Below, piece after piece: positions 20,447 through 54,897 of a stretch of 64,000 bases of DNA. Both the position numbers and the translations under genes were made by a program. Numbering within the stretch: position 1 is the stretch's first letter; each line of letters starts with the position of its first letter. The notes beneath the pieces are model-generated. The model saw only the letters and a list, made by a program, of their open reading frames with translations. It searched no databases and had not been told where the DNA came from. Source of the DNA: a virus; the IMG/VR virus record IMGVR_UViG_3300029904_000009, positions 2,378-66,377 of that record; one strand, given 5' to 3'.

Positions 20447-20471
20447 ATTTTATGAAATCAAAAATAAAAAA
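20447..20471 (-). promoter_or_regulatory. candidate phage late promoter motif, copy 1
   Basis: On the minus strand TTTTTTATTTTT-GATT-TCATAAAAT, about 80 bp upstream of the protease start. Confidence 0.5.
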
Positions 20472-20533
20472 GTTATAAAATTTTTCACGACAAATTTTCT
20501 CCTGCATCGCATTTTCGTTTCAACATATATTGG

Positions 20534-20558
20534 ATTTTGTAATGATAAAAATAAAATT
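20534..20558 (-). promoter_or_regulatory. candidate phage late promoter motif, copy 2
   Basis: On the minus strand AATTTTATTTTT-ATCA-TTACAAAAT, upstream of the capsid operon. Confidence 0.55.
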
Positions 20559-20575
20559 TTTGAAATTTTTTGAAA

Positions 20576-22753
20576 TTAAACCATGACAATGGCTTCATTT
20601 AGTGACAGGCTCATAGTGGGGTTATTTCCAAACTGCATAGAAATATTGTTAATCACAAAGTCTCCTGTTACCCCCAATTCTGGGAAATTAAGATGAACGA
20701 CTTTATTAACATCCAAATACAAAATTGGGATGGTTGTTAAAGATGCCGTTGCATTATAAATTAGATTATTATACAGCATTGCACGAACAGATTCATAACA
20801 GGTGCCAAAAGAATTAACTTCTTGGAAGTACTATAGCTAATCTGGATTTACGAATGAATACGCCTATCCAATAGAGATATAATACTAAGTATTTTCAATC
20901 ATTTCTTGAGGTTGACCAGTATTTTCAATAAATACTAAATCAGGAATTTCTCCTTCAAAGACTTGATTGATTTTAGTATTTTCCTACGCGATAGTTCGGC
21001 GGCCAATTCTATTCACTCCATAAACGCCGACTCCTGCGCTTGTGTCAATAATATCCAACCAATAGCGCAATTTTTCTGGAGCGATTTTTACATCAACGGT
21101 ATAACCCGCCCAAGGAGTCTCATCGTTATCTTCTCCGAAATGGTCTTCCCAACTTCTCTGGAAAGAATCCATCCCTTTTAAATCCCAAGTACTAGACGGA
21201 TCAAAGATATTTCGCCATTCGGCCATTAACTCTTCGTCATAATAAGAACCTTCAGTAGAAGTTCCATATGCCAATAATGCCTGACGATATAACTCTTCTC
21301 TCCAATTAAAATGATAGGAGGCATCCAAATCAGGAAATGCTTCATCGAGACTTAAAGCAGCGACTTCTCCCCAGGTCTCATTAACCTCATCTGGAATATA
21401 AGCATTCTCTACCACATAGCGAGAAATAGTTCCATCATTTTTATTCATCACTTTACGAATAGTCTTATGGCATAAAGAATAGTTATCTCTAATTACCTCA
21501 ATCTCTTCTTCTGTAACAGGTTTTGGTATATCTTTTGGCCGAACATCAATCGCTAAATGATATCTTACCATGACTTCACTGTTAGAATCATCTTGCTTAG
21601 TTCCCCAACAAATAAAATCATTCTTTATCTTTGAATAATCTGGATTATAGCCGATCTATGTTACTAAATTCTAATCTGCAAATTCATTGATAAAAGCATC
21701 GTCAGTATATCTTGGGAAATATAGACTCTATAAAGATTTATCTAAATCTCGAGTCTATTGAGAAATGTTGCCCTAAGAATCTACAACCTCTACTGTAATT
21801 GTTGGATCGTAATTCAAAGGAGTAACTCCCGTTGCTTGATAATTTTTAATCTGTCTGAAATGAAAAATCCCTTCTGCATCATAGAAATATTCATAATTTC
21901 CAAGAGTGGAGACAATTTCATCAAGGAGATTGGTTACTGTCTACCCCATTTTTAAAATGAGTTCTCCAGGATAAGTTAAAGGCGTTTCTCTATAACCTAC
22001 TAAATCTCCCTGATAGTAAGTATTTTCAAAACCGGCAACGGGAGGTGCGGCAATAACGAAAGAACGCCCACTGTTCTTAGCATCTATTTCACTTTGAAAA
22101 TTGATCGGAGTACTGCCTCGCCATCTTACAACTTTACGGCCGACATCTGGGACATCTTCAATTACAATACGAGAAGGATGCTCTCCGCCATAATGATTGA
22201 CAGCTTCAAAAATGATTTCTTTAATTAAAGGATACTCAGTAGTATAGTTCCCATCTTTATCATAAATAATCCTATCGTGGAAACTGGTATTAGCGGGGAG
22301 AGTGCCTCCACAAGTTCCGTTTAAAAATGCCATCTTGTCCTATAATTCAATACTCACCTATGCAGAAGAGACTGAAATGGAAGAAGAAGCTCTCGTAATA
22401 ACAAAAAGTCCTTGCTTAAACCAAAGCTCTTCTCCATACTGCGCGTATTGAGGTAAGTGATAAAAAGGATTTTTTAATCCTAAAGACAGAGAGATCTTTT
22501 TATCAATAGCAATCAAATTATTTATGTCAGTAATATTCTTTGTGTCCTCATCAAAAACAATGGTTAAAGAACACGTTTTTCTTACGGCAGAGTTAGCGGC
22601 TACCGTCATGGAGCCGCTAACTACTTTGCCTTCAAGACGAGCAATAGGATTCTCTGTTTCAAAATCAAGAACCATAATCGCCGCCAAATATTCTCTGACT
22701 TTATGCTAATTGAGCTTTAATAAAAAAGATCTATCGTTCATAAAATCAGCCAT
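20576..22753 (-). CDS. tail/baseplate protein (many in-frame TAG)
   Basis: ATG 22753 with AAGGAGG. Four ORF-track fragments share one frame to TAA 20576. Motifs VSIEL[TAG]DKMAFLNGTCGGTLPA and PDYSKIKNDFICWG. 725 aa. Confidence 0.75.
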
Positions 22754-22763
22754 AAACTCCTCC

Positions 22764-25700
22764 TTAACTTACTACACCAACAGGTATTGTAATATCAATA
22801 GTTTGCCCAGAGTCAGTAACTCTAATTTTCAGCTCACTTGCTGCGCAAGCAGCTGCGGGGCGGCTATAAGTAATTACAGCATCTGTGCTAATAGTTATAC
22901 TATTTGCTCGCCAACCTGCTGGCATAGAGGTAATGGTAAATGCAGGAGCAGCTAAGCCAGTAAAGCCGGGCTTAATATTCACTGTACCACCTGTATTTAC
23001 TCTTCCATCTGGAATTGCTCTTGCCGTAGCATCTGGAGTATAAGTTAATGCTTCTCCGCTAACGGCTCCTGCTGGAATCCGAATTGTAATCTAAGTAGTT
23101 GGACTGGCAGAATCTGCGACACTAACTACAACCTCTCCAGCCATTGCGTTTGTTGCGGGACGAGTACCAGTTACAATACCAGTAGAAGAGTCCACTTTTA
23201 CAGAATTTGGAAGCCATCCATCAGGAACTGAAATTAAAGTAAAAATTGGTGTCCCACCGCCAGTAATATCTTTCTTCAAATCAATTCGTGGAATAGCTGT
23301 GTTAATAGTTCCTGCTGGGATAGAAGGATTTCCATTATAGCTCATTGCTCCAGTGATTTCGCCTACGTTTATGGTGACTTTCGCCGTTAATCCGGTAACT
23401 CTATCTTCTACCGTAATCACACAATTTCTAGCAGGCTAAGACTTTGATTGAGAATTACCGTAGATTAGACCAGAAGCACTACAAAAATAAGGAGAAATGT
23501 TAGCGTCTGCACTAAATACAAAATCTCCAGATCCACCCGTGATTTGTACTGTTTTTGGAATATCAATGGCTTCAATTTCTGTCCATGCCTACTGTGGAGG
23601 AATATCTAAAGCTGGGCTATCTGGGAAAATGAGAGGCTCATAAACAACCCAGTTGAAAGAGATACTTGCTGTCTACTTCGCCCCGTCAGTTACCGTTACA
23701 GTAATACTGCCACTGCTTCCCAATTCAGTAGGGGTTCCTACTAAATAAGCTTTAGAAGTATCTAAAGTATCCCATTCGATTCTTACTCCTGCTGGGCCTC
23801 CACTAATACTCCAGGTATATGGAGCTACACCACCAGAAAGTCCGTCTGAAACACTGGTCTAAGGCATTGCAACGCCCTGTTGCAGAACCAATCGTAGATT
23901 TGCGGGTACCACAACATAATTCAAATATCCTGCAATTGCAGGGAAGATTACTTCAATAGTAGTAACCTAATCAGTGGGATTAAAGTCATCTGCTGGAACA
24001 GTAGCTGTTAGAACTACGCGTTTTTCTTCTCCAATAGAAGTAACAGTGCCACTGATCACTCCGTTGTTGAAACTTAAGCCAGTTGGCAAAGTGCCGGTCA
24101 TCGTATAAACAATTTTTCGGTTACTATTTGTTTTGAAAAATCTTTTGCTATACCATTCTTGAATTTTAAGATTTCGTTCAGCATAAGGAGATGTGATACC
24201 ATCCGCTGGCTCAACGATATTTGTTACCATTGGAGAGAACCATTGTTCTATGCCGTCCCAAGAGCCATAATTACCAGTGTTATCCTTAATTCTAAAACGG
24301 GCAGTCATATCAGCAGGATTTGCAATTTCAGTTGGTATACCAGAAATAGTGCCCGCTGAAGAATCAATTCTTAATCCTGGGACGATTTCATTGACTGAAG
24401 ATGTAATAACTTCATAAGTATAGGGTGGCTATCCGCCATTACCACTAATAACAGGAATAGACGACTTTTTACCCGGCACCTATGAAATTCCTGCTAATAA
24501 GTCATAATTTCCAAAAGAGTTTTTCAAACTAAAAGTCAACTTGTCAAAAGTTTCTCCTTTATCGAATACTACTCTTTTGCTTTGACCTGAGGCGTCTGTA
24601 ATTTGAACTTCAACAGAACCTCCTGCTGTAGCTCCATTACCTGTACCTTCAAAATAGAACATATTTGGGTCTTGTTCCGCACCTTCAGTTTGTCGGATAA
24701 TCCATGGAGAAAGGTCTCCAGATATTACTGTAACAGTATAGGGATAAATACCTCCTGTTACTCCAGAGAAATAAACCTTCTTTTGTTGGCCATCACTCAA
24801 GGAAGGAAGAGTAGTAATTTGCTAATTCCATTTAAGCTCAGGGACAATAACTCCTCTTGGAATCTTAATTTGAATTTTCTCTGGCAAATCTTCCGCATTC
24901 GCTGGAGTATCCTCAACTTCAATGGTTATATATCCAGCAGACATTGGTGCGGTTGGCCATTGAGTTGCTCCATCAGGAGGACCAATCTCAATATATTCTT
25001 CTAAGGTGTCTGGATTTTGCTCAATACGTCCTTCAATACCAGAAGGCAAATCCCTAAAAGTGAATTTAAATGGCGCTTTACCATTTTTAATGTCACTTAA
25101 AGGAATACGAACATAATAGTTTCCGTTATTTGAATATACAAAGGTATCGAATAAATGATAATCTTCGCTAGGATCAAAAGTTAATTGAGCAGAGATAGGA
25201 GCAATATTTATATTGACGTATCTCATTTCTCCACGAGCATCAAAAACCTTAAGAATACCAACTCTCTGTTCTGAAGCTACCTATGCTCTACCTGAGATTT
25301 TACCGTAATTGTCGATAGTAAAATCAGGCAAGAGGTACTCAGCAGAAAAACGATAATAGGGTCGATCGACATATCTCAAACCGCCACGAACTTCAGCCAT
25401 ATCGTATGTGATTACTTCGTCAGGATTATCTTTATCAGGATCGCCTTGGACATAAACTTGAATAGGATCAATAACTGTTCCAATCTGCATGGGAGCCAAA
25501 GCTCCAGCACCACCAGATGGATCATCTCCTCCTGGGTCTATATCCAATCTATGAGTAACATCAAGAAACTCAAATTTTTCAAGTTGGGCCTAAACTAAAA
25601 TTGTAATACTCGCAGATGATGGCGTTGGAGTATCAAAATCTGTAGCTGTAATCGTTGCAGTAACAGCATTTCCCTAATTTAATGGAGAGCCGGATATGAT

Positions 25701-28700
25701 TCCAGTTCCTGGATCAATAGTAATGCCAGCAGGCAATCCCTCTGCGCTAAATTTATACCCATGCGGGTACTCTGGCGTAATATTTTGTTTGCCACCGCTT
25801 ACCCCAGAAGATACATCTACTTCTTTAATTGGAACTCCCTATTCTGAATATCCAACATTAAAGTTAATACTCGGATAGAAATAAATCGGGAAATAACCTT
25901 GTCCAAATTGGAGAACTTCAGTAGCCACTTGTCCAGCAGCATCTACCACTTGGATAATCGCTTCTCCAGGTTCAACCACTTCAGTATATGCGCCGGTGAT
26001 TACTCCGTAATTATTGATAGTAAAGCCTTTTGGAAGATTTTCTGCGCTCCAAATATAATCAAAATCGCTTCCCGTTTCAGTATAACTGAATTTTAAACCG
26101 CCGCTAACATAACTAGATAAGTTGATAGGGGTGATATTAGTTCCCACCTTTTCTTCAGCAATAGAAACCCCAATCTCTTTAAAAGTCAACTGAGGATAAA
26201 TAATACCAGCGGTAATTGTCATTTGAGCGAACTCTTTTGTAACATTATCGTAAACCTATAAAGTAACTTGATGAGATGGGATAGGGTCTAAAGATGTCGA
26301 AACAGGAGTACCGCGAATTTCACCAGTATCAGGATTTAAAGTTAATCCAGAAGGTAAATAAGTAGGAGATACTACGCTAAAATTATAATCTCCACTTCCA
26401 CCCTTAACCGCGGCTATTGTCTGAATTGGTTTTATAGGAGTTCCCGCCAAAGAGTCTGGAATATTATAGATTTTATTATATTGATAAATCAATCCATCAT
26501 AAACAGCGGGGTCAAGATCACCGCGAACATAGGTATATTCATTAACCTAATTTATTACATCATTTAATTTCTCCAAATCTGCATTGTTATTTACAATATA
26601 AGTACCAGTACTCTAATCTAGTGTAAAATAAGGCTCCAAAGTTCTATCAAAACCAATGATAGCCAAATAATCTTGTTTATCAACTACTGATCCAAATGTA
26701 AGGTTTCGAGGCAGTCCTGTAATTAGCTAAGTCTAAAAAACAAAAGGTATTAGATTATAATTGATTAAGTTTTCAAGATTGTATTCAGCGATTTCTGTAA
26801 CAGTACAACTTAAATTATATACCATTCTATTAGATTTATCTTGAGGAGTAAAAGATGCTCCTGAAATCATTACAATCATATTGCCTTCAGTTTCAGACCT
26901 AAAGAGCTTTGGTTTTCCGTCAGCAAGCCAGAGCATTACGAAATCTCTGAATTTTCTTTCAAAATAAATATTCTCATCAGTTTTTTCGGTAGATCCTGAA
27001 CGTATAATATTGCGATGCAAATAATCGTCAAATACTGTCATTGGTCCAAATTGGCCGCCATAGTAATCCTAATCAAAATTTTCGGTTTCAAAAATTTCGT
27101 CTCTATTGACTTCATCCAAGGCTGCCAATTTATCGTTCTTTTGCAAAAAGTCTCTCATTCTTGCACGAGAAATGGAAAACTGTTTTATTGAATAGAGATC
27201 TTTATTCAAAATTACCAGTCGAGAACCATTATCATCATCCCACCATAATCCATTTTCATTATCATTGCGTAAAAAAGAACCTGTAGGGTCATGATTTGCT
27301 GTTACTAATCCGCTAAGAGTAAAAGTTCTATAATTAGTTTTCGCACTTCTTTGATAAAATGGGAATTGAGAACCTAAAGTTGTTTGAAACTAATCCTGAG
27401 TATTGCGTTTAAAAGTAGTAATATTTACATTTCCCTGTAAACGCAACTAATGATTACGAGTAGTTAAGAAAACGGAATCCATGTGCATTAGTCGACCATA
27501 ACCGGGATTATCATAACCCCAATCATAAATATCTTCAACTAAAGCATATGCAATGCCGTCAGCATTCTTCAATACCGCAATATATTGATACTCTTCTCCC
27601 ATTTCTACAGAATAGTCTCTGAAAGTAGTTTTCGCTCCACGAGCAGCATCTAATCCTTCGATAACCTTAATAGTCTCTAAAGAGTAAATATTTGCTCGAT
27701 AAATTGACAAAGTGCTCCCTTCCTAATATACTTCTGGATCATCGGGAATTATAGTACCATCTGGCTTTTTTGGAAGTTCGGGGATAGATACGGTTTTCGC
27801 CAAACACCCATCCTCATTTTCCTCTCCATATAGTTTTGCCTCTTCAATCAAAGGGATGCGTTCTCCAGTATCGGGGTCTTCAGATTTTAATACTGGGAAA
27901 ACTTTACTATACTTTAAAGGTACAATAGTAAGAGTTCGGCCGCGAATCGTATTGTTTTTAGTAATAGCTTCTAATGAAACTAATATTCTTTGAACTGGAG
28001 CGATTGGCAGTTTTACTTTTAAAGTATAAACTCCATCCTGTTGGCGCTATCCATTAAATACCAGGGTATTAAAAGTAGAACCATACAAATCAGCATATTC
28101 GTATACAATTTTAATCTATTCTAGAGGATCATCCAAAACTGGAGCATAACGATATTCCAATTCGGGGATAAAATCGTTGTAATTTGCAGTTAAAGAAACT
28201 GCCGCTGACCCATAACAATATACTGTCTGGACATTAGACCATTCTCCAAACCATGAAGGTATCGCACTTGTTGAACGCGCACGCCAGGCAGCAAATCCAC
28301 CAAAATCGCGGTCGCTAATACCGGAGCCTGTCGTCCACAGAACATCATTGCCAAATCTTACTTGTACACAGTAAGTAGTTCCCTGTTGTGGGCGCCCGCC
28401 GTCAAAGCAAAAGTAAGGAATTGAAATCTCATAGTTTCCACTATCCTTTCTATGGAAATAATTATGAGATTCTTCTCGATTAAAATATAATACATTTCCA
28501 TCAGGTGATCTATCCCTATTAACTGCCGCTTCGTTGGTAGACTAATACTTAATAGATACTTGGATATGCCCGATGTCCTCAATAGGATTGACATCGGGCA
28601 TTTTGAATTCAATATTATAGTAATTATCTAAACCGGCAACTTCGGCATAAGGAATAGCCTACGCTTTTGCTTCAAGGACGGGAGGATATAATGTTGCCAT
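22764..28700 (-). CDS. giant baseplate/tail-fibre protein with tandem Ig-like (He_PIG-type) repeats (TAG=Gln)
   Basis: ATG 28700 with AGGAGG. Ten ORF fragments share one frame to TAA 22764 (1978 aa). N-terminal FERKFRDFVMLWLADGKPKLFRSETEGNMIV; C-terminal repeats such as LPSGLTLNPDTGEIRGTP and LPAGITIDPGTGIISGSP. Confidence 0.75.
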
Positions 28701-28721
28701 AATTCTCCTCCTTAACTGTGA

Positions 28722-29111
28722 TTATTCAACAACTTCAATAAACTCCATCAAAGGCTCAAGAATTGCAATAGGAAGGGAATCTTTATCAGTTACCTGAATA
28801 GGAGTATACTCAATTTCGATAGTCTCATCAGATAATTGACTAAGCGCCTCATTTACTTTGTCAATTTTATCATCCGGAATTTTTAAACTGCCGTTTGGCA
28901 AACGCTCTCCGCCGGCCTGTTCAGCCAGAGTGGTTACTGTTTCAGATAATTTAATTGCCTCTTCTTGCAAAGTTTTCTTTAACTTAATCAAATTATACAT
29001 TTGCACCACTTGGAGTTTTGTTTCATTCTTATTGGCCTCCCAAGCAGAAAAGAGAGCATTTGCAGTATTCTGCAATTCATTGGTAGTAAGAGTTTTCTTA
29101 ATAGTTGTCAT
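28722..29111 (-). CDS. hypothetical protein
   Basis: 129 aa, AAGGAG RBS, TAA stop, no TAG. Confidence 0.75.
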   Translation of the reverse strand: MTTIKKTLTTNELQNTANALFSAWEANKNETKLQVVQMYNLIKLKKTLQEEAIKLSETVTTLAEQAGGERLPNGSLKIPDDKIDKVNEALSQLSDETIEIEYTPIQVTDKDSLPIAILEPLMEFIEVVE

Positions 29112-29129
29112 ATTTATTTCTCCTTTTTA

Positions 29130-30767
29130 TCAGTTTTGTGCCGCCTAATTTGCGATAGTCTTGTCAGATTTTTTATCATTTGGTAGTTGCGGACGGCCGG
29201 CGCCACCAGTAGAATCTGAAGTTACGGAACCAGAACGTGCAGTATCAGCCTATCCTCCAACGGGTGTAACTTTACCACCAGAGAGAATTTGCTGCTGTTG
29301 CGCCTTAATATCACTCCAAGTATCAGAAGACATGGTATTGGAGCTAAATGGAGGCAGCATATAAGCATCAAGCTGCATAATCTGCTGTTCGAGTTTTGCC
29401 ATAGAGATAACCTCTTTCTGGGTATGCCCAAGAGCAACCATTGGCAGGAAGCGGCTAAAGCCGATCTTTGTAAGATTCTCATACTTACTGGACATATCAG
29501 AAGAATTAAAGATAGAAGTAAGCAGCATCTTCATGCGGAACTTCAAATCTTTCTTGTTAAACTTCCATTCAAGATAGCGATTAAAGAATTGCTCAAATTG
29601 CAGAAGCAGAGGTTTAATATAAGCCTCGTCAATAATAATTGACTTTTCAAGAGCAAGGTTGCCGTCGGTATTAAACAAATTGGCTGAAATACCAAGGGCG
29701 TTATAAACACTATTTTGAGCGGCTTCGAGGTTATTTTGAGATTCAGTACCGTTACTTGTTGCCAAATCTTCAAGCGATACTTCTGCAACAGTAGACAATA
29801 CACTTACTCCAACAGCATCACCGACCATATCTACGGCATTTTGGTTTAGCTGTTGAAGTTCTTTCATAGTGAATGGAATTTGACCATTTTGATCAAGTTC
29901 AAACTTCTGAATCAAAATCTTTTGGATTTGCTGAAGCAACTTCTCTTTTTCAAGATCTTCTACTTCATCAAGTCCAATAATGTCAGGAATTGCGTATAAG
30001 AAGGGTGGAATGTCCTCATCATTAAAGTTAAACTTAAATGAACGGTTCATATCCAGCAAAATCCAGCCCGCCTCATCACCTTGCTCTTCAGCAGGGAGTT
30101 TGCCAGCTTTATATTTGCGATACCCGGCTTGGAACTCTTCAGGGAAAAGACCAAGAAGTTTCTCTCTATACTTTTGATCAGAAGTTACTTTATCAAAGTA
30201 TTGGACATTAAATTCCACGAGAGGCATTCCCTTATAAAGAAAACGGGAACGACAGAAATCAACAGGCAAATCTTGGACAACAAGTTTATCATTTACATCA
30301 TCACAGATGTAACCATAATAGCAGCCCTCAATACAAACCGCATTTGCCCACTTACGGCACATTAACTGAATCGCCGAATTATCAAAGTGCTCGAGTAGCA
30401 CATTGAATTTCTTTAGAATCTTGTCGCTAAACTCGTCTGTCATTTCTAAATCAAGATCGAGATTTGGATAAAGCAGAAAGTCATATTTATAAATATCTGC
30501 CAAATAACGAACAGCACGAGCATAGACGCCATTGGTTTGGAAGAAATACTTTGACAGAGAACGAATTTGTTTTAAATCTGTGCCCTTAGTTGTCTCGATC
30601 ATTTTGTCATGTGTCTGTCGAGTCCAGTCAACAGAATTTCGGCCCTTGCTATCCTCTTTATAAATAATAGCCTCAGCCGGTTTAATAGTCATTTTACGGA
30701 CTTTTAACAAACCAAAGTCCATTGGCGGGCGCGGAGTATTGACGCGCTTAAACATAGGCTTATCCAT
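29130..30767 (-). CDS. portal protein (2 in-frame TAG near the C-terminus)
   Basis: ATG 30767 after AAGGAGG; SKYFFQTNGVYARAVRYLA and DLPVDFCRSR. Past TAG 29250 the frame continues ADTARSG...GGAGRPQLPNDKKSDKTIAN[TAG]AAQN to TGA 29130. 545 aa; lies downstream of terL. Confidence 0.8.
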
Positions 30768-30781
30768 ATTGCCCTCCTTTC

Positions 30782-31171
30782 TCAATCAAAGTATTTACCC
30801 TACTCCAAAATGGAGTCAAGTGTCATTGAATTATATTCAGTGTATGGAATTGCGACTAAAGTATACCCTTTAACCGCGCAGTAGGAACGCTTTCTCTTAT
30901 CGTTAGCCTACTGTCTTGCAAAGCCTTCCTTAGTTTGGAACTTTTGCTTGTAATGCTATTCACCTTGCATTTCCAAAAGAAACTTTGGTCTTTCTTTTTC
31001 CATATCTTCTGGAGACTCAAAAATAGCAAAATCAAAGCGCAGCGGGATGCCTCGGTCTGATTTCAAATCAGGGAAAGAAAATTCTGTAACATACAAAATG
31101 TCTCCCTAATCAAGAAGCATAGCTGCCTTTCGCTCCATGATGGAAGGATGGTCATTTTCTTGCCAAGGCAT
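30782..31171 (-). CDS. Vsr/DUF559-like PD-(D/E)xK endonuclease (4 in-frame TAG)
   Basis: PLRFDFAI...LLEMQGE[TAG]HY...FARQ[TAG]ANDKRKRSYC...LVAIPY matches the family pattern E-x-x-G-E-Q-H-Y. AGGAGG RBS. 129 aa; absent from the ORF track. Confidence 0.8.
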
Positions 31172-31208
31172 TTATGTTCCTCCTTGTCATCGCTTTATTA
31201 TATAAAGC

Positions 31209-31233
31209 ATTTTATAACATCAAAAATAAAATT
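31209..31233 (-). promoter_or_regulatory. candidate phage late promoter motif, copy 3
   Basis: On the minus strand AATTTTATTTTT-GATG-TTATAAAAT, upstream of the endonuclease/portal genes. Confidence 0.55.
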
Positions 31234-33052
31234 ATTTCTTTCTCTTTCGTAGATTAGAAGTGTATTGTCCATTACCCTTCAAAGTAATACGAGAGCGCAT
31301 AGACTTCTATCCATCTCGACGACCAGCGATTTTCATAGCCTGGTCCCAAGAAATCGCTTGGCGCATCAAAGCACGGTCATCAATCTCTATTTTAATATAC
31401 CAAAGAGCATAGCCCATAGCAGACACTTTATCCTTCTTGATATTCTTATTTGTACGGTCAAGAATAATGTTTACACCTTCATGCTTCTCTTCCAAGTTAA
31501 TCATCTAATCTTTCAAGATAGATGTTTGCATAAATGGCACAATCCAATTTGCTTTATCGTCTTCAGTCATATCTTTAAACTTTAAAGCACGACTTGCGTC
31601 CATTTTCATCTTGGCCTGACGCTCATCAATAAGAAAACGCAGTTTGCCAGTAGTTAATTGCGTTTGCAGATTAGCATACATCTCTGTATTGAATGGAGCA
31701 TTTGCTTTGATAATATAAAGCAGATTTGGGATCATATCTGCACTCTTAAACTGGTTATAGTAGCCTTTATCATCATTGGCTACACCCCAAGGTCGCAAGA
31801 ACTGATTGGTGCGAACATCTACTTGAGATTTAATCAATTCATCAATTAGGCCGGCGCCAACGCCCGCGCCGTCGATGACGACTGCTCTTGGATGATATTT
31901 TTCATAGAGCAGCTTAATTTCAATCGCTTGCTCGGCGAAGTGCATTTGCTCGAAGGAATAGATATTGACAAGATGCTTCGTAGATGTTGTACCTGTTTGT
32001 GGGATATATTTCCATACACAAACTTCAGATTGGTCAGAGAAACGGCCAACGTCAATACCAAATACATAATCTACGCCTTTGCCAAGGTTCTTTTCTCTCT
32101 CAAATACTGGTTCTTGGAGAGAACGGTATTTGTCAAATGTCTCTGCCGCGAAGTAAGCATTTTCAGAACCACTGGACCAGCGACTCAAATATTCACGACC
32201 AAAAGAAGTGGGATTGAATGTGCCACTCATCTTTTGCTAGCGAATAAAGTCCATATTCTGCAATCCTGCAATAATAGGGATTTTATAGGAACCACCCAGC
32301 ACGATTGCCTTATTTGGCTCTGTTAACTGACGCAACAGCGTTCTAATCAAAGTATGATAGGCATAGGTATCCTTAAATCCAGCGGTTGTAACGCAAATCT
32401 TTTGCTGAGAGATAGTTTCAGCCTTATTAAATTCGCCATTTGCCGCACGACGCTGAATAGCGAGGGTAGGGATAATAACTTCCTGAATAATATCAGGATC
32501 ACCCTCAATAATCTCCTCAAGAGTCAAGCCAGTGAAACGCAGACCACGAGAAGATTGTTTAGCGGCAAGGTTGCTCATTTGAGAGCCGTTCTTAAAGTAA
32601 ATAGTGAACTGGTCTTTGACCTTCTCTGTCTTTCTAATCTCAAAGCGCAAGATTGGCAACAAAGTAAGGATTTCTGAGACTTTGGACTCCAAAATGGCCG
32701 CAGACTGACCTTTAGTTGTAGCCGCAATAGCCAACTTAGTATTTGGATATAAAATGCACTCTAACATATTCCAGAGGTCATCAATAAAGGACTTTGAAGT
32801 ACCACGGCTGAATGTTAAGAATACATCTTTGTATCTCGCCATCGCGCGCAAAAAGATTCGCTGGTATGGGAACAGTTTGAAAGTACAATCTTCTCCAGAC
32901 GCTTGAATATACATATCAACAAGTTTATCTGGATAAGCTCGATAGAATGATATTGCTTTTCGATATTCTTCGATATTATCAAGGATTTCTTGTTTGCTGA
33001 CTACTCGCGTAAGAAGATTGTTTTGGTTATTCTTCTTAATCGGTAGTGGCAT
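31232..33052 (-). CDS. terL: terminase large subunit (3 in-frame TAG)
   Basis: ATG 33052 with GAGGAGG. ATPase motifs FSRGTSKS, RGLRFTGLTLEE and CVTTAG; nuclease motifs FGIDVGR, VIDGAGVGAGLID and KDKVSA. Fragments are joined at TAG 32237, 31505 and 31307; TAA 31232. 606 aa. Confidence 0.9.
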
Positions 33053-34202: not shown

Positions 34203-34301
34203 AGAAATATCTCCTTTATAATTTCCTTTTGCTCCGACGAGGCAAATCCTTTATAGATCCCTATGGCCTTGGGTTTTGCTTCATCGTTCAAAATAAAAAT
34301 T

Positions 34302-34326: not shown

Positions 34327-34328
34327 AG

Positions 34329-34357
34329 TTGCAATAAAAAAATTTTTATGCTATAAT
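34329..34357 (+). promoter_or_regulatory. sigmaA promoter with palindromic spacer, driving the HTH gene
   Basis: TTGCAA-17-TATAAT with an extended TG; spacer AATAAAAAAATTTTTATG. Confidence 0.85.
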
Positions 34358-34387
34358 ATAGTTAGAAAATAAAGAAAGGAGTCCTTT

Positions 34388-35023: not shown

Positions 35024-35042
35024 TACGGGTGCCTTTCTTTTT
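35005..35042. terminator. bidirectional rho-independent terminator
   Basis: AAAGGCACCCGTA-TAA-TACGGGTGCCTTT 13-bp stem between convergent genes. Confidence 0.9.
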
Positions 35043-42459: not shown

Positions 42460-42477
42460 ATTTTACTCCTTTCTATC

Positions 42478-45400
42478 TTATTGATGGTTTTTCTAAGAAA
42501 CATACTGAACAGCTTGATTCACCAAGTTGGAGAATGCTTCTTCAATTTCAGAGGCAACGGATACGTTCGGGAATGTCGCATCAATATGTACCTGTTGTTC
42601 GACCTATTGAATATCCTTATTAATAATTGTCTTATCAACAACACCAGAGGTTTTCTTTCCAAGAGCGCCATTAATGCTAGACATCTTCATCTTTACAATA
42701 TCTCTCATATGAGCGACTGCGGAGAGAATATTTTTGGTGTCTTCAGAATTTAAAATCAATTCTGCACCATCTTCAGCCACAGAACGAATTTGAGGAGTTC
42801 TAATTAAACCGCCAGTAGCCGTCTCTGGTGGCTTACCCCAATTCTACTGAGCCAATTCTCTCCAATTAGGATGATTTTGTACCCATTCATCAACAGTATC
42901 CCAAATTTCGAAATTACCAGATAAGAAATAATTCATAGCTTCGTCAACAGCAGACTATAAGTATTTATCAACAAAGTCCCAACCTTGTTGGCCCCATCTA
43001 TCTTTTACTGTTCCATGTCCAGCATAATACAGCTCTTCACTACCCAATTTATTTTTTAATTCAGTTACTAATGACTTTAGTTCCTCATCTGCTAAGAGCT
43101 ATTCTTCCGTGTAACCTTCTTCTAATTTTTGGCCAATGTAGTTATGAATTTTCGCAGTATAGTCAGTACCAGCATCAAATCCAGTATTATACATTTCATT
43201 GATTGAAGCATTTTCCATCTACTTTAAAGTATTTAAGAAAGCTTCTAATTTCTTTTGGCAAGCTTCCATGTGGTCAATGAAGCTCTCACGGAAGTTACGA
43301 ACTTTTTCATCGAGTTTAGTTAATGCTCGGCTACCCTCAGTATTCAAGTTCTTAATCTTTTCTCGAAGAGCGTCATTTTCTTTGCCCATCAATTCGGTTT
43401 CTGTCTTTACTGTTTCTTCAAGTTCATCGTATTTAATTCCAACTTGATTGCAAGTCTCTTCAACCTGACCCTAATAATCTTTGGTATTTTGTTTTAAGTC
43501 ATTAGTGTACTTAGTATGCTGAGTAGTATACCATTCTTGAGCAGAATTCATATCTTTGCAGTTAGTTATCACTCCAAGAGTAGTATCTTCAAAAGCCACG
43601 TCAAGCATCCCATTATATTTTACAATCTAGTTTGCATAAAGTTCAGTCTTTTGTTGATAATAAGCTAACTGCTGATCGATCATGCGCTTGTAATCTGCAT
43701 CATGCTCATAACGTGCCCAGTCAATAGTCTCCTAGAATTGGAAGAACTCTTGTTGAGCTTGTAGCCAATACTGAGATGCCTCATCACTGGCTTCCCAAAG
43801 TAATTTTTCATAATTATATTGGGCGTCTGCCAATGCTTGTGCGGCGTTATCAGTTTCGCTCTAATCGGAAGAATATACATAATTCCAATTACCAGAAGCA
43901 TCACGAGCTAAACGCATTGTATTTTTGGCATTTTGAGCTTCTTCATAAGCATCTTGTGCTTTTTGAATTTCAAATTTTGCCTTTAACAAATCAACGTCAG
44001 TCTATGTAAGGTCAACACCCTCTTGATTTGCAGCATTGATTTCTTCAATAAGAGCTTCATATTCTTTTAATCTGCCAGGATCAGTGATGTTTTCCATCTA
44101 ATCATCAATATCACTTAACAAACTATTTAACTGATACTCTTTATCAAAATCTCTCAGGAAGAAAGTATCAAGATCATATTGTTGATCATACATAGAAGTC
44201 ATATCATCAAAGCTAGCAAAATCGCCGCCAAGATTTTCAACGACTTCGTCTTTAATAACTTCAGCTACCATTTCAATAGCATCTGCTGCCGCAGCAGCTA
44301 GATCCTGAATGGAGGAAGTCATATCAGACTAAGCATCGGCCAATAACGCATCAGCTTCATCTTTTGCGGCTTTTAATTGATTATAGACAAATGCTTCTGT
44401 GTCATTATACCCTTCCGCATCTCTACCATGCTCGGCATAGAACTCTTCAAGCTGAGCAGTAGTTTCTTCAGCGCCTTGTTTTGCCAATTCAAGGGCGCTC
44501 GCTGCACGCTCAACCTCAAGTTGAGCATTATCTACAGTTGCATCGGCAATAGAACGAATAGCATCTCGACCATCAGAAGTCCATTTCTTTCCACTAAATT
44601 CAAGAAGTTCGGTAAACATTTCAAGTTTATCATTATTAGCAGAAATTTTATCAGCTATCTTATCAAATTCATCCATATACATATTTAATACTTCAATATA
44701 TTGTCCAAACATTTCTTCAGCTATATCATACATAGAGTTCATATACTCGATCATGCTATCCGCGTCATCTTGCATAGCCTCAAGAACTTCAGCGGGCAGG
44801 CCACCATTGCCTGTAATGTATTTATTCCAGGCTTCCTCGCCAAATTCACCGATAAACCAATCTCTATTGGCATTAGAAGGATTGATATTATTGATAATTT
44901 CAATCATTCTGTTTCCATGCTCAAGAGTTAGGTTAAAATTCTCAGTTTCTTCGCGTAGCTACTTGCCCAGCTAATCAAAAGTTTTGCCCATCATCGTTCC
45001 AAGATCGCCCCAAAGTTCAATAGCTTGTTCAATTAAAGAAATATCGCGTTCATTTATTCCAATCTAAAACTCCATTTTATAAGTGGCTTCCTCTACTTTA
45101 TTAGCCATCCATTCACGGATATTTTCGAGCTATTGTTCAAGAGCGTCGGCAGCCTCCTAGGCAGTCTCGTCAACTAAGTCAAGGGCAGCCAAGAACTCAT
45201 CAACAAAAGCTTTAGCAACATCGTACTTTTCCTTTAAGGCGTCAATTCTCTCAGATTCAGCCTCGTTTGTTGAGTTAGCTCTATCATAAGCCATAGCTGC
45301 CTAATAGTAAGGCTCATAAAGCGATTTTAAATAATTATCTAACTAAGCAGTCAATTCAGTACGATTGCTTACAAAACCTTCTCCATTAAAGAGAACTTGG

Positions 45401-48400
45401 TCTAAATTTAGTCCAGACAAACCCTCTTTTGTAAGGTTAGTAATTAAATCCTTTGCAGCGATTTGAGCATCTCGTTTGTCTGTTTTCAAATAATCCAAAC
45501 TTAATTTACGGAGTTGCTGGAGATTTTTGCCTTGTTTTTGAAGTTCAGAATTTATCTTTTGAAGATTACGGACTTTTGCTGCACCCCAAGCATCATCTTG
45601 TGCATCACTTAGAGCATCAACAGATCGTTGAACCTAATCAATAGAAGATTTAATTGTTGCATAACGATCCTTTATTGGGTCATATTTAGATGCTTTTTTA
45701 GCGGAATGCTTAGGCGCAGAGCCGCTGCCTCCGCCTCCTCCTCCAGTTTTTGGCTTTGTACTACCGCCTCGATAATTAGTGGGGGTAGGAGGGGTACTAT
45801 TACCAACTTTCTACCTACCAGAACTAGTTTTAGTAACACCAGTACCAGGTTTTAATTTATAAGAAGTTACAGGAACTTCTTTTTTCGTCTCTTCAGTTTC
45901 TTTCGTCGGCACATAATCCCAAGTAGGGATGCTCATCGTCGCCATTGTGCCGCTTTCAATAGTAACTTCTCCACTTCCTGATGTTATTTCTGCATTTAAA
46001 GTTTTTGTTCCAGTTTGCTAAACGCTCCAAGAAGTCTATTCATCTTTGCCATCTGCTTCTACCGTAGTAGTATCTGCTTCTGCATCAACGCCAATTCCTT
46101 CAGCAGGGATCAGGTCCTCTGCGGTTAAAGGTTCAATATTTAAATTATTGCATAACGCTTCAATTTTTGCCATATCAGTACCACAAGCGGCAATCATGGC
46201 ATTTAAAGCATTATAAAATTGCGTCTCATTTAAAGGAATTTCTATACCTGCGCCATAATTTCCTAAAACATCCTGCATCTACTATATATAGGTAGAAATA
46301 GTTGTTGGATCAAGACCTTCTAAATCAAGTTCTATAATAGCGTTTTCTTGTAACTAATTTAAAGCCTCAGCAGCCTCTTCAGCAGAACCGGTTAATACTG
46401 TTTCTAGTAATTCCATATTCTCAGCACTAGCTAAGAAATCATCGCTTAAAGAGGATCCATCTACATCCAATAAATCAGAATAAGCAGAGCGCATATCATC
46501 CATAGAATCAGAGAATTTCTAATAATCTTTAATTGTTCCATTGTCATCCCAAATATCTTTCCAATCTTCAAGATTGTCTCCTGCCGTCTGTAATCCTTTA
46601 GTAAAACGAGCCTATTCTTTAGCAACTTCATTCATTACATTGTCATTTTCTAATAAAGCCTCTGAATATTCTTCTTCTCCAGTTACTGCATCGTCTTGCG
46701 TCTCAATTAGCTATTCAATCCCTTCTCTATAAGCAGATAAATCATTATAATCAAGACCGGACTCTTCCATATCTCCCTAAATTCTAGTTGCATCTTGCAT
46801 AGCTTCAATTTTTTCATTTTCTTCAGCTAATTCTTTTGTTTTATTTTTCCATTCATCTGTTAAATCTCCGCAATCTTTAATCGCTTGTGCGATAGCCTAA
46901 TACTCAAAAATAGAAAGATTATCCTTCTCTAACCCTTCTTGCCAATTTCTCATCTCTTCAGCATGATCATCTCCATATCCTGCAGCCTCTAAATACTATA
47001 ACTGTTTATATACATCGGCATTATCAGACCCCGGTCCAAGAGTCGCAGGCCCAATCAATCCTTGAAGAGGATTTGCCATCTAAAATCCCCATTGAGATTT
47101 TGAAAGTTCTTCAAAATTGTAAGAATCAGCATTGTCTGCCATATACTAAGTTTGCGCCATTCTCTCATTATTCTACATTGCTAACTAATTATACTGAGAC
47201 ATTGCTTCATTCGACATTAATTGTTTAAATTCTTGGGCATCTCCAATTAATTGATAGGTGCCATCTGCCATAAGCTAAAAATACTCTTTACCTTTTGCAC
47301 TTAAAGAATCATATTGCTCCTAAGGAATAGTATCTCCAAAATTAATTTTTGCAATTTCAGCAATAGTTTTAAAATGTTCTTGCGCGCTAGTAAAATCAAC
47401 CTATGCAGCTTCTTGCATCAAAGCAATTAATTCTGGCAATTTATCTGTTAAATCATCAGTAGAAACACCCATCTCTTTTAATTTTTCAGTTAATTCTTCT
47501 GGAGTAATATTTGACCAATCTACATTATTTAAAGTCTTTACTACATCATCTAATTCAATACTATCATCGGTTAAATTATCTCCAATCTAATCAATAAAAT
47601 CATTTAAAAATTCTCCGCCTTCTGATCCACCAGCAGTAAAAACTTTCTTAACCATTTCGGCATATTCTTTCTAAGCATTTAAAGAAACATCACTTAAATC
47701 AGCATTATTAAATACCTATTTTGCTCGTCTTGTTAAATCTTTACCAATAGAATCAAAATCTTTAGTTGAAGCATCAAAACCTGCTCTAATATCCTAAATC
47801 AATTCCTCCGAACTCTCTCTACCTAAATCTTTAGCCAATTGCTCTAAATCATCAGTATTAAATAACTCTTTTAACCAAGTTTCCATCTAATCGTCGCTAT
47901 AAGCTGAATAAGTATTTATTTCTCCTTCGGTCATCTCATTAAAATTACCAGAGCTTAAAAAGTCAATAAATTCTTCTCCTCCAATACCTTCAACACTTTC
48001 TCTTCCTAATTGATTTAATCTTTCTGATACAGTATCTGCAGTAGCTCCTAATCCTTCAAGGGCTTTTTGAGATGCCATAATAGCCGCCAGCTCTTCGGCT
48101 CGAACTGTTTTAACCTCTCCGTCTATTTTAAATGCAAACTCTCTATTTGTGTCTGTTCCCCGAGCAAAATTACTATCCGCCTCAATTGTCTAATCATTCA
48201 TATAATCTCTATAAGCCTATATAATCTCGTCTTTAAAAGCTCCTCCTTGACCCCATAAATCACCAATTTTGGCAAAATTGTCATCCATCTTCTTCTTAAA
48301 TTCATCTTGATACTATTCTTGTTGTTTAGCTAAAATATCACCAACAACATCTTTGTCATCCGCAGAGTATTCATCTCCAAGCATCTAATCCGCCATTATC

Positions 48401-51400
48401 TAAGAAGAAGCTTTAATCTAATCGGAAGCTTCATTTATAGACTCCCCATATAAATTTATATCATTTTGCAACTATTCTAATTCTTCTGCTGTTCCATCAA
48501 AAGAAATACCTGCATTATCAAGTGCGGCTTTAAAATCTTCTGGAGAAGTTGCTTCCATTAAACTCTATAAGTGTTCATCAATTTTTTCCTAAACTTGCTC
48601 ACTACCATTAAGACCTAAAAAGGAAGCTACAGTATCTCCCATATTACCTAAGCTACCTTCAACATTATTTATATTTTTTGCAATACGTCGTCCTTCTACT
48701 CTTCTTTCAGCTTCTGTTAAATTCGCTTGTCCCATAGCAAAAGCATAATCTGCCTAATACTACTCATTATCTATCTATTTCTAAGCCTATTTTAATTTAT
48801 CTTCATCGATTTTTAATAAGCCGTCAGCATCTCTTTCATATAACCCTGCAACGCTTATTCCTAAAGATGATAGGGTGCTAATTAAATTCAAAGCTTGCTC
48901 ATTAGCATTTTTTAAGGCTTCTGCAAATTCATCTGTACCTCTTTCACAGTCCTCTAAAGTCGTAATAGCCTAATCATAATTTTCAATAGATGATTTTAGT
49001 TCATCCGCTCTTCCTTTAGCTTCTTCTGCACCTTCCGCCAATCCCTGAGCCGCTTCCTTGGCTTTTTCTAATTGAGCTTCTGGCTGGACATTTCTCCATT
49101 CAGTAAAATTATACACTAATTTTGCTGTGGCGGCAACAACCGCAACTATTGCAGCAGCGGCAATCCAACCTGCTGGCCCTGCACTGGCTAAAGCACTTCC
49201 TAATTTGGTGACTACTCCTGTTAATTTAGATCCAGAAGCTGCTGCTCCGGCCATAGAAGAGCCTAGTGCCGTAGTACCTTTTGAGGCACCAGCCGCAGCC
49301 GCTCCGACTCCAGTAATTTGTGCTACTTGAGCACCAGTAGCTCCCTGAGCAGCAGCGCTCCTTCCAGTCGAAACTATTGAAGTACCATCTAGCCCAGCGC
49401 TAGTAGCCATATTTCCAACGGCATTCCACTTTTTTGTTGAGGCGCCCTTAAGACCTGATAATTGACCTTTACTAAATTTTCCTGATCTTACCGCTGCCTA
49501 ATATTTTTGTTCAGCAAGCGTTGCCGCTGTAATTGCCGCTGTTAATTCAGCATAATCTTTAGTTAATTCGTCTGTGTCTTTACTTGCCCCTTTCATTGTT
49601 GCTCTTACAGTTTTTAAAGTAGCAGCCATGGTCTTAAATTGAATTATTGTAGCAACAATATTTGGAATCATTAGTAATAATTGAGCAATAATCGCTCCCC
49701 AATTTATTTCGTCTTGATCTAAAGCATTTCCTAAAGCCATAAATTGGAAAACTAACAAACCAGTATTTGAAGCAAGCTATAATAACTATTGACCAAATAA
49801 CTAAACACTAGATCCACTTAACTAAAATGCTGCAGATACTTGTTTTGAGAAATTAGAAGTATCTTTCAAAGCAGCAGTTAATTTTTGCTACTACTCTATT
49901 ACTTCCGGTATTCTCTAAGCGTAAGCTGCAATTGATTGCCCTAACCTTGTATTTCCCATTCCAGCATTTTGAGCTGCAGTTGAAATTTCATCTAAAATAG
50001 GAGACAAAGTCATCATATTTCCAATGAAGCCTTTTAATCCCTATTTGCTTGTCTAAACTGATAAAGCTTCCAGCTCTTTTACTAATCCAGAAGTTCCCGG
50101 AACAGCCTAAGCAACAGATTTTGCCATCATCGTCATGCCATCAGCCATTTTCTGAGGGGCGGCAGAATCAATTCTAGACATACCCTGTTCAACTTGACTT
50201 AATCCCTATAATAATTGGGCCTAAGCCTACATTGCTTTTGCTGTTTCTTCGTCTTCTCCATTTCCAGATTTTCGAGCTGCCTACTATAAAGCGATGGCTC
50301 TTCTTTCCATGGCTTTTGCAATCTATTCCTAAACCTATGCTTCTGTTCTACTAGTGCGCAAATTGTTTATCGATTCAAAGGCAATCTACTAATTAGTATT
50401 TAAAGCCTATTTTAACCATTCAACTTTATTTTTCGCTTCTTGAGTTCCTGTTTTTTCTATTGCATTAATTTCTGCCTAAGCCAAAGCTATATCTTTTGTA
50501 ATACGTAATTTCTGTTGATCATACGCATTGTTAGCTATTGCATTAGTAACATTATTTGCGTTTGCTGGTCTAAAGTGAACACTTTGGACACTATTCATCA
50601 TGGCTTCACTATCTCTTCTAATTGCTGCAAGCTAATTATCTAAAGTTAAAGAATCTTTCCATGAATTCCAAGCCGCTTTAATATTATTGATATACTTTAA
50701 TAGATTTCTAGACAGATAAAGCCCAATAATAGTTAATATTCCTGGGATGCCACCAATTGAATCTAATATTACATCAATAGTATTACCTACTTGCTCTAAA
50801 CCGTTATAAAATCCTTTTAAAGTATCTTCTTCAAAAATATTACTAAAGGCTCTAGACCAAGCTTCTGCAGAATTTGTCATAGCAGAATCTAAAGAATCCA
50901 GAGATGTTAAATATTGTTTTTCTAAAGTTTCTGATCCAGATTCTGATAAAGCAGAATTATAATTAGCCATAAATTTATCCCAATTATTAAATAATGCTAA
51001 TACTTGACCAAACTATCTCGTTCCGCCGATTGCTTCTGCTAAAGCTATCTACTATTTCTAAGAATATTCTTCCCAACGATTTCCTAAATCTAAAATAGTC
51101 TCACCCAAAGGAATTAAATCACCATTAGTATCTAAAATCTAAACTCCTAAATCAGCTAACTGCTAAGAGACTCTACCTAAAGTTACCTCTCCATCTGTTC
51201 CACTGGATACTAATTGATCAAAACGGGAGAAAATAGTTTTATATGCATTACCGATAACTGAAGCAGATTGCTAAGTAGTATCACCAACGGTAGCAATAAT
51301 CGCCGCCAGCATATCGTATTCAACATTCATTTGAGAAGCCGCTGAAGCAGAAATCTACATAGCAGTCGCTATATCTTTAAATTCAACTGCTGTTTCAGCA

Positions 51401-52194
51401 CCCATTCTAGCGCCTACAGAAGCTGCTCTCTCTAGCTATTCTCCCTACATTTGATAAGTATTCCATACGGCAGTTAATTGCTAAGACATTTCTTGAGTTG
51501 ACTGTCCAGCTGCCTAAGCCGCTTTAATTGTAATCTAAGAACGACGCTCTACTTCTTCGTCGCCTAAACCTTGTTGATAAAAAATCTAAGCCGCATAAGC
51601 ATAATCATCAGCAGCGACTCTTAATTCCTTAGCATTTTTAATAACCGAATCAAAAACCTACTACATTTCAGAAGCACTCTTACCAGATACGATCGCAATG
51701 GTATTTAATTCAGAATTTAGCTCTTTCACCCAATTAACCGCTTGGCTAATTTGAGATGCAACAAATTGTTGTATTTGCGCAGCAGCGGTAAATTTAACAG
51801 ACTGAGTCATAACTCTCTACATTTCTTTTATTTTAGAATTGATATTTATTAAATTTCTATTTGCTGTAGCAAAGGTAGTTAAAAAAGAATCCAAAGAATT
51901 TGAAAAAGCAGGACCAGCTTTTGCCAAAGTTGATACCAACTAGGAAGCGCTAGTCCCTGCTTTCTAAAGTTCAGTATTTAATGAAATAAAAGAAACGCCT
52001 TTCTCAGTTGTGGCTTTTTTAAGGGCGTTCTCTAAAATTTTTGCCTACTTTACCGCTGCGGCAATTTCATCAGACATCCCTTTTCCAGCAGTTGGCATAC
52101 TAAAAGCGTGCTAAATTTCTTTTTGAATTAAATTTAGCTAGGATTGTAACATTTTAGTATCTGCTGAAAATCCTATCTAAAAATTAATTGCCAT
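42478..52194 (-). CDS. tail tape measure protein (TAG=Gln, TAG-dense)
   Basis: ATG 52194 with GGAGG to TAA 42478 in one frame (3238 aa). TP901-like core (AAIIATVGDTT..SASVIGNAYKTIFSRF), Ala/Gly-rich and coiled-coil segments. All ORF fragments share the frame. Confidence 0.85.
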
Positions 52195-52213
52195 TATTTC
52201 CCCTCCTTAAATT

Positions 52214-52780
52214 TTATTTATCGGATTTCATAGCTTCATTGTTTAACTCAAACATTTTTAAAATTTTATCAATATCAGGATCCTCTTGAAGGATGGATTT
52301 AATAGTATCAACTTCCATCAACTGTCCCATTTTTTCATTTGAAATCTTGTCTAAAATACCCGCGGCACTGTTGTTATAAGACATAAGTTCATGAATCGTA
52401 GTAGAGAAGTTTCTCGCGATAAAATTTAATTCTTCTGGATCAATTAATTGTTTTACTTCTTCTACAAGGTTTGTTGAAAAAATAATATCATAAGATTCAT
52501 ATACTTCTGAGGGAGTGCAATTTGGAGATTCAATAAAACTTAAATCTAAATTTGTAAAAAATTTAATTATAGCAAAATTCTCCATTACTTCCACGAGCGG
52601 GGTACTAACAAAAGTTCTATCACTAATACTGTAGTTAATCCCCCATTGAATTAAATCCATAAGCTGTTCAAAAGGAATTCTTTTTTTAACCTCAACAACA
52701 ACATCTCCCTTTTGAATGTACCCAATTTGAGGCTCTTCAATGGGTCCAAGATTTGCAAGTTTAATTTTTTCAATAGCCAT
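52214..52780 (-). CDS. putative tail assembly chaperone
   Basis: 188-aa helical protein immediately upstream of the TMP gene; no TAG. The call is positional. Confidence 0.5.
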   Translation of the reverse strand: MAIEKIKLANLGPIEEPQIGYIQKGDVVVEVKKRIPFEQLMDLIQWGINYSISDRTFVSTPLVEVMENFAIIKFFTNLDLSFIESPNCTPSEVYESYDIIFSTNLVEEVKQLIDPEELNFIARNFSTTIHELMSYNNSAAGILDKISNEKMGQLMEVDTIKSILQEDPDIDKILKMFELNNEAMKSDK

Positions 52781-52806
52781 TATAAGGCCCTCCTTTTACT
52801 TATTTA

Positions 52807-53964
52807 TTATTTGGTTAAAATACCAGGATTATAAAATCCTTTTTGTAAATAAAAGTTAAATGTAGTAGTATCCCATTTAGGGACTTTCCCTTTTTTTCTC
52901 CTTGTTGCGCTCTACTACACAATCTATTTTTCTGGTACGTCGATATCTCCCATTGGTTCTCCTGCTGCGGCGAAAACATATTTAGTCCCTTCCAAATATG
53001 AACGCCATTCTTTTTCTCGAATAATTTCCATAAGAGTATCTATATCTTGTGTTAAAGATACCTCTAATCTTCCTCCAGTATAAAGGATATTTCTTCCAAT
53101 AATAATCCTTTTATTACCCTAAACATTATAGCTTCCTTTATGTAATAAATAATTAAATAAAGCCTCTTCTGATTTACTAAACTCATTATTTAATACATAA
53201 CCCATATATTCTTCGAGGCCAATAGATCTTACATTTGCCACCCATTTATACTATGGAAGATACTTTTTATCCTAGTCCCAAAGCTAATCATTATTTAATC
53301 CTTTAAGAAAATCTTTAAATCTCTTCTAAAATTGTTCATCAGTAAAAGTAAACCATCGTATTCTATTAGGATTAGAGTAATATTTTAATTCTAATATGCA
53401 ATTCCCTAATAAAAGGTCACCAGTAGGATTTGATCCTGCCACCGTAGCTAAAATAGTCTAGCACATTTCAATTCCTACATTTTCTTCTAATATTCTTGCC
53501 GCTTCTTTTGCTGTAATCAAAATATCCTATTCTGCCTATTTAACATATTTATTAGTAGTAAAATCCTTAAAAAATTTCATACTAAAACGCTACAAAGAAA
53601 ATGCCAGTGTAGGAACGGGAGTAGCATCATCTTTATTTACATCTAAAGAAGGAAAATGCTTTTTTACTAGATTTAAAAGTTCTTCATAAACACACCACTC
53701 AAAATATCTTCCTACAGCATTATCCCAAGAACCTCCTGCAAAAGTAGAAATATTTACTCTGCCAATATTCCCATTCTCTGCTCCTCTATTTATCCTTTCC
53801 AGTATTTTTTCTGCCCAATCAAACATTTTATTAGTTTTTACATTAATTGCTCCATTTAATAAATTTACTATTCCAGTCATATCTACGATTTCTTCTCCTG
53901 CATTTATGGCTTTTTGCAAAACAGCTTCATATTCTTTTTTAAATTGAGCTTCTGTAATTGCCAA
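52807..53964 (-). CDS. hypothetical protein (many in-frame TAG)
   Basis: TTG 53964 after AGGAGG. I read the frame through to TAA 52807 and found only TAG interruptions. 385 aa. Confidence 0.7.
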
Positions 53965-54020
53965 ACGCCTTCTCCTCCTTTCCACACCTGGCCGGCGTTT
54001 CATATTCTACCTAATATCTA

Positions 54021-54045
54021 ATTTTATAATATTAAAAATAAAATT
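54021..54045 (-). promoter_or_regulatory. candidate phage late promoter motif, copy 5
   Basis: On the minus strand AATTTTATTTTT-AATA-TTATAAAAT, upstream of the tape-measure operon. Confidence 0.55.
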
Positions 54046-54878: not shown

Positions 54879-54897
54879 CTTAGGAGGTTGTAATAAC

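Follow-up and report, generated by a model that had tools for sequence, protein, structure and literature searches.

Late transcription in phage T4 starts at promoters read by gp55 together with gp33 and the gp45 clamp, and Bacillus phage SPO1 runs a cascade of sigma factors, gp28 followed by gp33/gp34, each step with a -35/-10 consensus of its own. Activator-dependent late promoters of Firmicute phages, such as phi29 A3 with p4 and those served by RinA, ArpU or Alt upstream of terminase, do without a -35 ahead of packaging and structural genes. The T4 late promoter carries TATAAATA at -10 (cited, e.g., in PMC1524935). Here, we describe a motif with the consensus TTTTTTATTTTTGATATYATAAAAT (over 20 sites), which stands ahead of virion and packaging gene clusters in a 64,000-nt stretch of viral DNA (the window), bases 2378-66377 of a 68.7-kb IMG/VR contig with a CheckV completeness of 49%. 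Promoter consensus sequences specific to late phage genes are a familiar kind of element, and in the Phassvirus group no better candidate for such a late class is at hand than this motif.

The window covers part of a phAss-1-like (Phassvirus) siphophage genome, and its TAG codons are predicted to be read as glutamine (Gln). Its major-capsid-like protein shows 99.1% identity to the counterpart in phAss-1 (OQ749652, "Caudoviricetes code 15 clade", human gut), and TAG recoding, suppressor tRNAs and synteny are common to phAss-1 and the window. Babkin et al. (2023), who described phAss-1 and the proposed genus Phassvirus, predicted a Clostridia host (PMC10607447), and the host of the present phage is probably also a member of the Clostridia. 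Promoters, sigma factors and RNA polymerase have 0 occurrences in the phAss-1 paper, and the motif is not in it (PMC10607447).

A motif found only at the starts of late gene clusters

The initial annotation of the window had reported five minus-strand copies of the motif (P1 to P4b, Table 1). An exact pattern search found just those, compared with 0 in 100 dinucleotide-preserving shuffles, and when one mismatch was allowed over the whole 68.7-kb contig, there were still only these five. Since the consensus had been written from its own five sites, a leave-one-out position weight matrix (PWM) was added. Each omitted site ranked in the top 5 of ~128,000 positions, and the five copies scored 29-33 bits versus 11.5 for the next match. 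A gap-by-gap check of 20-54 kb, with the smaller gaps at 10-20 kb of the module left out, showed that each gap of 60 bp or more between minus-strand genes contains the motif and that copies lie in such gaps only. Equal frequency inside AT-rich genes had been named as grounds for dropping the motif; no copy lies within any gene. The distances to start codons with Shine-Dalgarno sites are 37-169 nt, close to the 40-170 bp ahead of morphogenesis genes given earlier, and the tandem copies P4a and P4b are 87 bp apart in the gap preceding the capsid cluster. The motif was thus found ahead of virion and packaging gene clusters only, in the orientation of the downstream genes.

Over the 20 sites, positions T5, T6, A7, T8, T9, T10 and A19 are invariant. 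The T-rich left half (TTATTT) is the best conserved and the right half (YATAAA) the variable one; the octamer reads TATAAAAT in the window and loosens to YAWAAAWY among relatives. The spacer, first written as four free bases, turned out to be mostly GATA. The two halves also include a partial dyad (TTTTAT-N10-ATAAAA). When the -10-like hexamer is set against TATAAT, A19 (position 2) is present in 20/20 sites, while the last base is A at 17 of the 20 and T at two. As had been claimed, no copy has TTGACA at promoter spacing; nor did any have a TTGACA-like -35 at 16-18 bp upstream of the -10, and a consensus scan gave only a weak 9/12 match at P2. Given this missing -35 and a sixth hexamer base that is mostly A rather than T, the motif does not look like a standard sigmaA promoter. 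Downstream of the motif, at a variable distance, comes a second -10-like box (TATAAT, TATATT, GATATT or TAGAAA). An Rfam search and folding of the motif regions gave no family and no fold beyond shuffles (z -1.1 to +1.6), which argues against an RNA structure or a terminator. To our knowledge, the T-rich block matches none of the consensus sequences of host sporulation or other alternative sigma factors.

Recognizing the genes behind the motif required a change of genetic code. With translation table 11, the 20.5-54 kb region yields only scattered short frames, while reading TAG as sense opens giant minus-strand genes of 3238, 2472, 1978 and 725 amino acids (aa) with 107, 36, 26 and 14 in-frame TAGs, respectively; no comparable opening of reading frames was seen in the window with TGA or TAA as sense. 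TAG is probably read as Gln on the minus strand between 20576 and 54003, because a 138-kb, 99%-complete relative (G004) has two tRNA genes with a CTA anticodon (locus L018, 11826-11994) among its 35, and because in lineage L166 the homologue of a 211-aa protein discussed below (10001-10609) has TAG at the Q177 column, an otherwise invariant glutamine. Genes were therefore labelled from Pfam and PHROGs with TAG read as Gln. The earlier labels of the genes downstream of the motif proved essentially right under this reading, with the correction that these genes become legible only once TAG is a sense codon. For the first gene of the cluster with the tape measure protein (TMP), which would encode 385 or 398 aa, a TTG start at 53965 with a GGAAAGGAGGAG Shine-Dalgarno is likelier than the ATG at 54003, which has none.

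Separation from sigmaA promoters and conservation in relatives

Near-perfect sigmaA promoters (TTGACA-17-TGnTAYAAT) crowd the plus-strand arms, and a strict count gives 25 in the window. These arms carry replication genes (AAA_24, helicase, Pol III alpha), as well as small genes and a glucosaminidase. In G004, 55 near-consensus sigmaA promoters were counted; two of them, probably chance matches, fall within the main structural module, and none is ahead of a late cluster. The motif class and the sigmaA class are thus sharply separate. Furthermore, a strong bidirectional intrinsic terminator closes the TMP cluster, and the terminase cluster beyond it therefore needs a promoter of its own. In the P2 gap, the motif is the only promoter candidate besides the weak 9/12 sigmaA-type match, which overlaps it.

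G004 contains exactly six strong copies of the motif (26-33 bits). Five lie in the array, and a sixth, found 48 kb away on the opposite strand, is 42 nt upstream of genes for a 213-aa protein, a 352-aa protein (weak BppU_N match) and a 1732-aa protein with immunoglobulin (Ig) domains, a cluster that looks tail-fibre-like. Since this copy precedes such genes on the other strand, the motif tracks gene function and not strand or position.

More diverged relatives were collected through the 211-aa protein family, which was found in seven lineages with 47-75% identity in that protein, and were scanned with a PWM built from sites of the phAss-1 group only. All top matches (15/15) fell at syntenic P1-P4 positions in late-gene orientation. 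The P2 site, divergent from the 211-aa gene, was matched in L160, L161, L162, L163, L164, L166 and G006, and the P3 site, after the large terminase (TerL) gene, in L160, L161, L162, L166 and G006. In G006, a syntenic genome that is also TAG-recoded, P1 (before the pre-TMP gene) and P4 (before the orthologue of the 612-aa gene) were matched as well. When the P2 intergenic region was aligned with MAFFT without anchoring on the motif, just two blocks stood out as conserved, namely the motif and the sigmaA promoter divergent from it, and conservation collapsed downstream. Further out, the motif was not found in Enterococcus EF1-like phages, the next clade (capsid 36% identical), and in an exact-pattern scan of IMG/VR, the matches listed were mostly single chance occurrences.

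Two local features are also recorded here. The P2 leader (34203-34301, ~95 nt to the 388-aa gene) has GC-rich stretches (gaagcaaa...ccctaac) in common with L161 and L162, though not with more distant relatives; the leader may be structured. The 3' end of the tail gene upstream of the P4 gap is strongly diverged, while the gap itself is invariant among relatives, which suggests a recombination boundary, with a variable tail module on one side and a conserved head module on the other.

Table 1. Motif copies, gene clusters, promoters and terminator in the window
Feature	Coordinates	Strand	Content and context
P1	54021-54045	-	~56 nt upstream of the probable start, TTG 53965, of the 385/398-aa gene opening the TMP cluster; back-to-back with a plus-strand consensus sigmaA promoter
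P2	34302-34326	-	100 nt upstream of the 388-aa gene preceding TerL; the divergent sigmaA promoter of the 211-aa gene has its -35 only 3 nt away
P3	31209-31233	-	Starts at the TerL stop codon; 37 nt upstream of HNH endonuclease and portal genes
P4a	20534-20558	-	First of the tandem pair before the capsid cluster; 169 nt to the start codon
P4b	20447-20471	-	82 nt to ATG 20365, the start codon of the 612-aa gene
Late cluster 1	35041-54003	-	398-aa gene, 188-aa gene, 3238-aa TMP (PhageMin_Tail domain), 2472-aa protein
Late cluster 2	31232-34202	-	388-aa gene (phrog_3314), TerL
Late cluster 3	20576-31171	-	HNH endonuclease, portal, 129-aa gene, 1978-aa Ig-domain protein, 725-aa tail-like protein
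Late cluster 4	10009-20365	-	612-aa gene (phrog_3313), 188-aa gene, 345-aa major-capsid-like gene, more virion proteins; nearly TAG-free
211-aa gene	34388-35023	+	Sole plus-strand gene within the late array; one in-frame TAG
sigmaA-type promoter of the 211-aa gene	34329-34357	+	TTGCAA-17-TGcTATAAT; A/T palindrome in spacer
Consensus sigmaA promoter	54065-54093	+	TTGACA-17-TGgTATAAT; divergent from P1; ahead of small genes and glucosaminidase
Bidirectional intrinsic terminator	35006-35038	.	15-bp stem with a T tail on either side; separates cluster 1 from the convergent 211-aa gene

A candidate late promoter class and its rivals

We consider it fairly probable that the virion and packaging ("late") genes have a promoter class specific to the phage, with the motif as its core, which is read by the host RNA polymerase together with a specificity factor encoded by the phage. 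The initial annotation had proposed the target of a phage sigma factor or late activator; placement, orientation, synteny, the contrast with sigmaA promoters and the terminator favour a late promoter class, whereas no sigma or activator family was detected. Promoter activity, the position of the start site, late timing, and the dependence on a factor and its nature are all predicted here from sequence. The large non-structural open reading frames (ORFs) of G004 encode NrdD, topoisomerase subunits, RecJ, a ligase, NAPRTase, a radical SAM protein and three proteins without a Pfam match, and there is no phage RNA polymerase among them. Because of this and because the other genes are on near-perfect host sigmaA promoters, it would be the host polymerase that is redirected to the motif. 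In the mechanism we propose, the factor, either an activator or a sigma-like protein that has diverged strongly, would bring the host core polymerase to the motif. The right half, YATAAA with A19, resembles the T4 late box and may be melted in the manner of a -10, and the T-rich left half, ~14-27 nt upstream of the start, may stand in for the missing -35 as the contact of the factor. Transcription would then start ~5-10 nt past motif position 25.

Several points weigh against this reading. A sigma or activator family is undetectable by sequence in the complete relative G004, and the half of the motif that would be melted varies among relatives. The second box downstream makes the true -10 ambiguous; it may itself be that -10, in which case the motif would be a factor site upstream of it. 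Close relatives are useless for footprinting, as the entire 210-bp P4 intergenic region (window 20366-20575) is invariant among them (L006-L014, alignment A1), and selection by PWM inflates the sequence likeness of the sites in diverged relatives, although their positions are independent evidence.

Compared with the systems described above, the motif is closest in outline to T4 late promoters, which are likewise AT-rich, lack a -35, have a -10-like box beginning with TATAAA and serve virion genes only, other genes being on promoters of the host sigma-70 type. Unlike T4, however, the motif has an invariant TTATTT block at a fixed upstream distance, and its octamer is TATAAAAT, not TATAAATA, and varies in relatives. 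The host also differs, being probably a member of the Clostridia. SPO1, a large Firmicute phage, similarly combines early consensus sigmaA promoters with a separate bipartite consensus on later genes, but the two blocks of the motif are ~14-15 bp apart centre to centre, not ~23 bp, and Pfam and NCBIfam found no sigma domain in the 99%-complete relative. The resemblance to the activator-dependent late promoters of Firmicute phages lies in the lack of a -35 before packaging and structural genes and in position, as the gene for the candidate regulator, the 211-aa protein, adjoins the terminase cluster. Unlike RinA, ArpU, Alt and p4, this candidate is divergently transcribed and without detectable homology, and, unlike single-site activator-dependent promoters, the motif is present six times across the genome.

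An ordinary explanation would be that the copies are weak, -35-less, AT-rich promoters for host sigmaA, in which the T-rich block merely helps bending or melting and no phage factor takes part. The -10-like YATAAA with its invariant A at the second position would suit this, as would the TG one base upstream of the -10-like box at P3 and the sixth copy, the weak TTGCAA-16-TATTAT match called at P2, and the clear use of the host polymerase by the phage. Against it, every copy lacks a -35 at 16-18 bp, the sixth hexamer base is A, not T, and the best-conserved bases fall outside the specific contacts of sigmaA; moreover, the 55 sigmaA promoters of G004 are near-perfect and sharply split from the motif class. 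We regard this explanation as unlikely. The partial dyad raises another, in which a dimeric repressor or architectural protein would use the motif as its operator and the variable TATAAT/TAGnAA box downstream would be the real promoter; P3, P4b and the sixth copy each have a box of this kind. A related A/T palindrome lies in the spacer of five sigmaA promoters. One palindrome-spacer promoter in G004 scores 20 bits with the late-motif PWM, and one protein might therefore bind both classes. The dyad is, however, broken by the conserved asymmetric positions 9-18, its half-site centres are 16 bp apart and so face opposite sides of the helix, and 21/21 copies examined are co-oriented with the downstream genes. 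These three features make a symmetric operator the weaker reading, and the downstream boxes differ in both sequence and distance. An operator is, in our view, quite unlikely.

The position of P3 and P4, internal to the gene array and with no terminator ahead, would also fit an AU-rich site for processing or stability between the cistrons of long late transcripts. This we judge highly improbable, as P1, P2 and the sixth copy lie in divergent regions or after a terminator, where no upstream transcript from the same strand is expected, and the folding and Rfam results given above lend it nothing.

If the motif is indeed a late promoter core, it delimits a late regulon of six clusters in the Phassvirus group. 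Gut phages with recoded stop codons are believed to hold back their late genes by the change of code, and the motif offers a conserved handle on the transcription programme; recoding and a separate promoter class would be layered on the same genes. It also helps annotation by marking where operons begin in genomes that defeat standard gene callers.

The search for a recognising factor and other promoters around the late array

Profiles for sigma factors (Pfam Sigma70_r2, r4 and r4_2; TIGR02937) were run on the contig and on complete relatives (G000, G004 and G006) and gave no recognisable sigma factor; a gp55-like protein was likewise not detected with these general profiles, no gp55-specific profile having been searched. 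The single weak match, to sigma region 4 in G004 (L017, 3846-4787, minus strand), was rejected, as it is the helix-turn-helix (HTH) tail of a GIY-YIG homing endonuclease in a tRNA-rich region.

The sole candidate for the factor that reads the motif is the 211-aa protein, whose gene adjoins the terminase cluster, and we put this assignment forward only tentatively. The 43 members of its family have no Pfam or PHROG match, loose E-values included, and the protein has no PDB match by profile and no Foldseek match; ESM Atlas look-alikes of the homologue P0003 were uninformative. Its structural model is all-helical, and its structure has only a weak likeness to sigma region 4 or to an HTH of the LuxR type. 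By eye, the segment GIIYSEIGEIMLG...SQVVNNY resembles an HTH of the region 4.2 type with an insertion. The gene has a strong sigmaA promoter and, in most lineages, is interrupted in frame by one to three TAGs whose positions vary, and full-length protein consequently needs amber suppression. It is conceivable, if rather doubtful, that the protein represents a new transcription-factor family without sequence relatives, gated by the code: the mRNA would be made early from its host-type promoter, full translation would in most lineages have to wait for active amber-suppressor tRNAs, and the change of code would thereby set off late transcription. In any case, this orphan protein gives a name to a possible link between the code switch and the late promoters.

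The sigmaA promoters themselves show further structure. The subclass in which an A/T palindrome (ATAAAAAAATTTTTAT) fills the spacer between -35 and -10 occurs at 90-141, 34329-34380, 54065-54116, 62777-62828 and 63328-63379 and drives the replication module, the 211-aa gene and genes on the lysis side; at the 211-aa gene, this form is kept in diverged relatives. In the region 56500-63400, each small early gene has its own consensus sigmaA promoter (TTGACAA-N16-TGTGGTACAATACAAT), which gives a dense array of ~20 that hardly differ in sequence; the array includes two face-to-face pairs around a GC hairpin, at 60198-60289 and 62409-62500, which are 90% identical. Finally, the glucosaminidase (probable endolysin) and its neighbours (54826-55671 and 55668-56288) are downstream of a sigmaA promoter and not of the late motif, and lysis and virion genes thus appear to be under different promoter classes.

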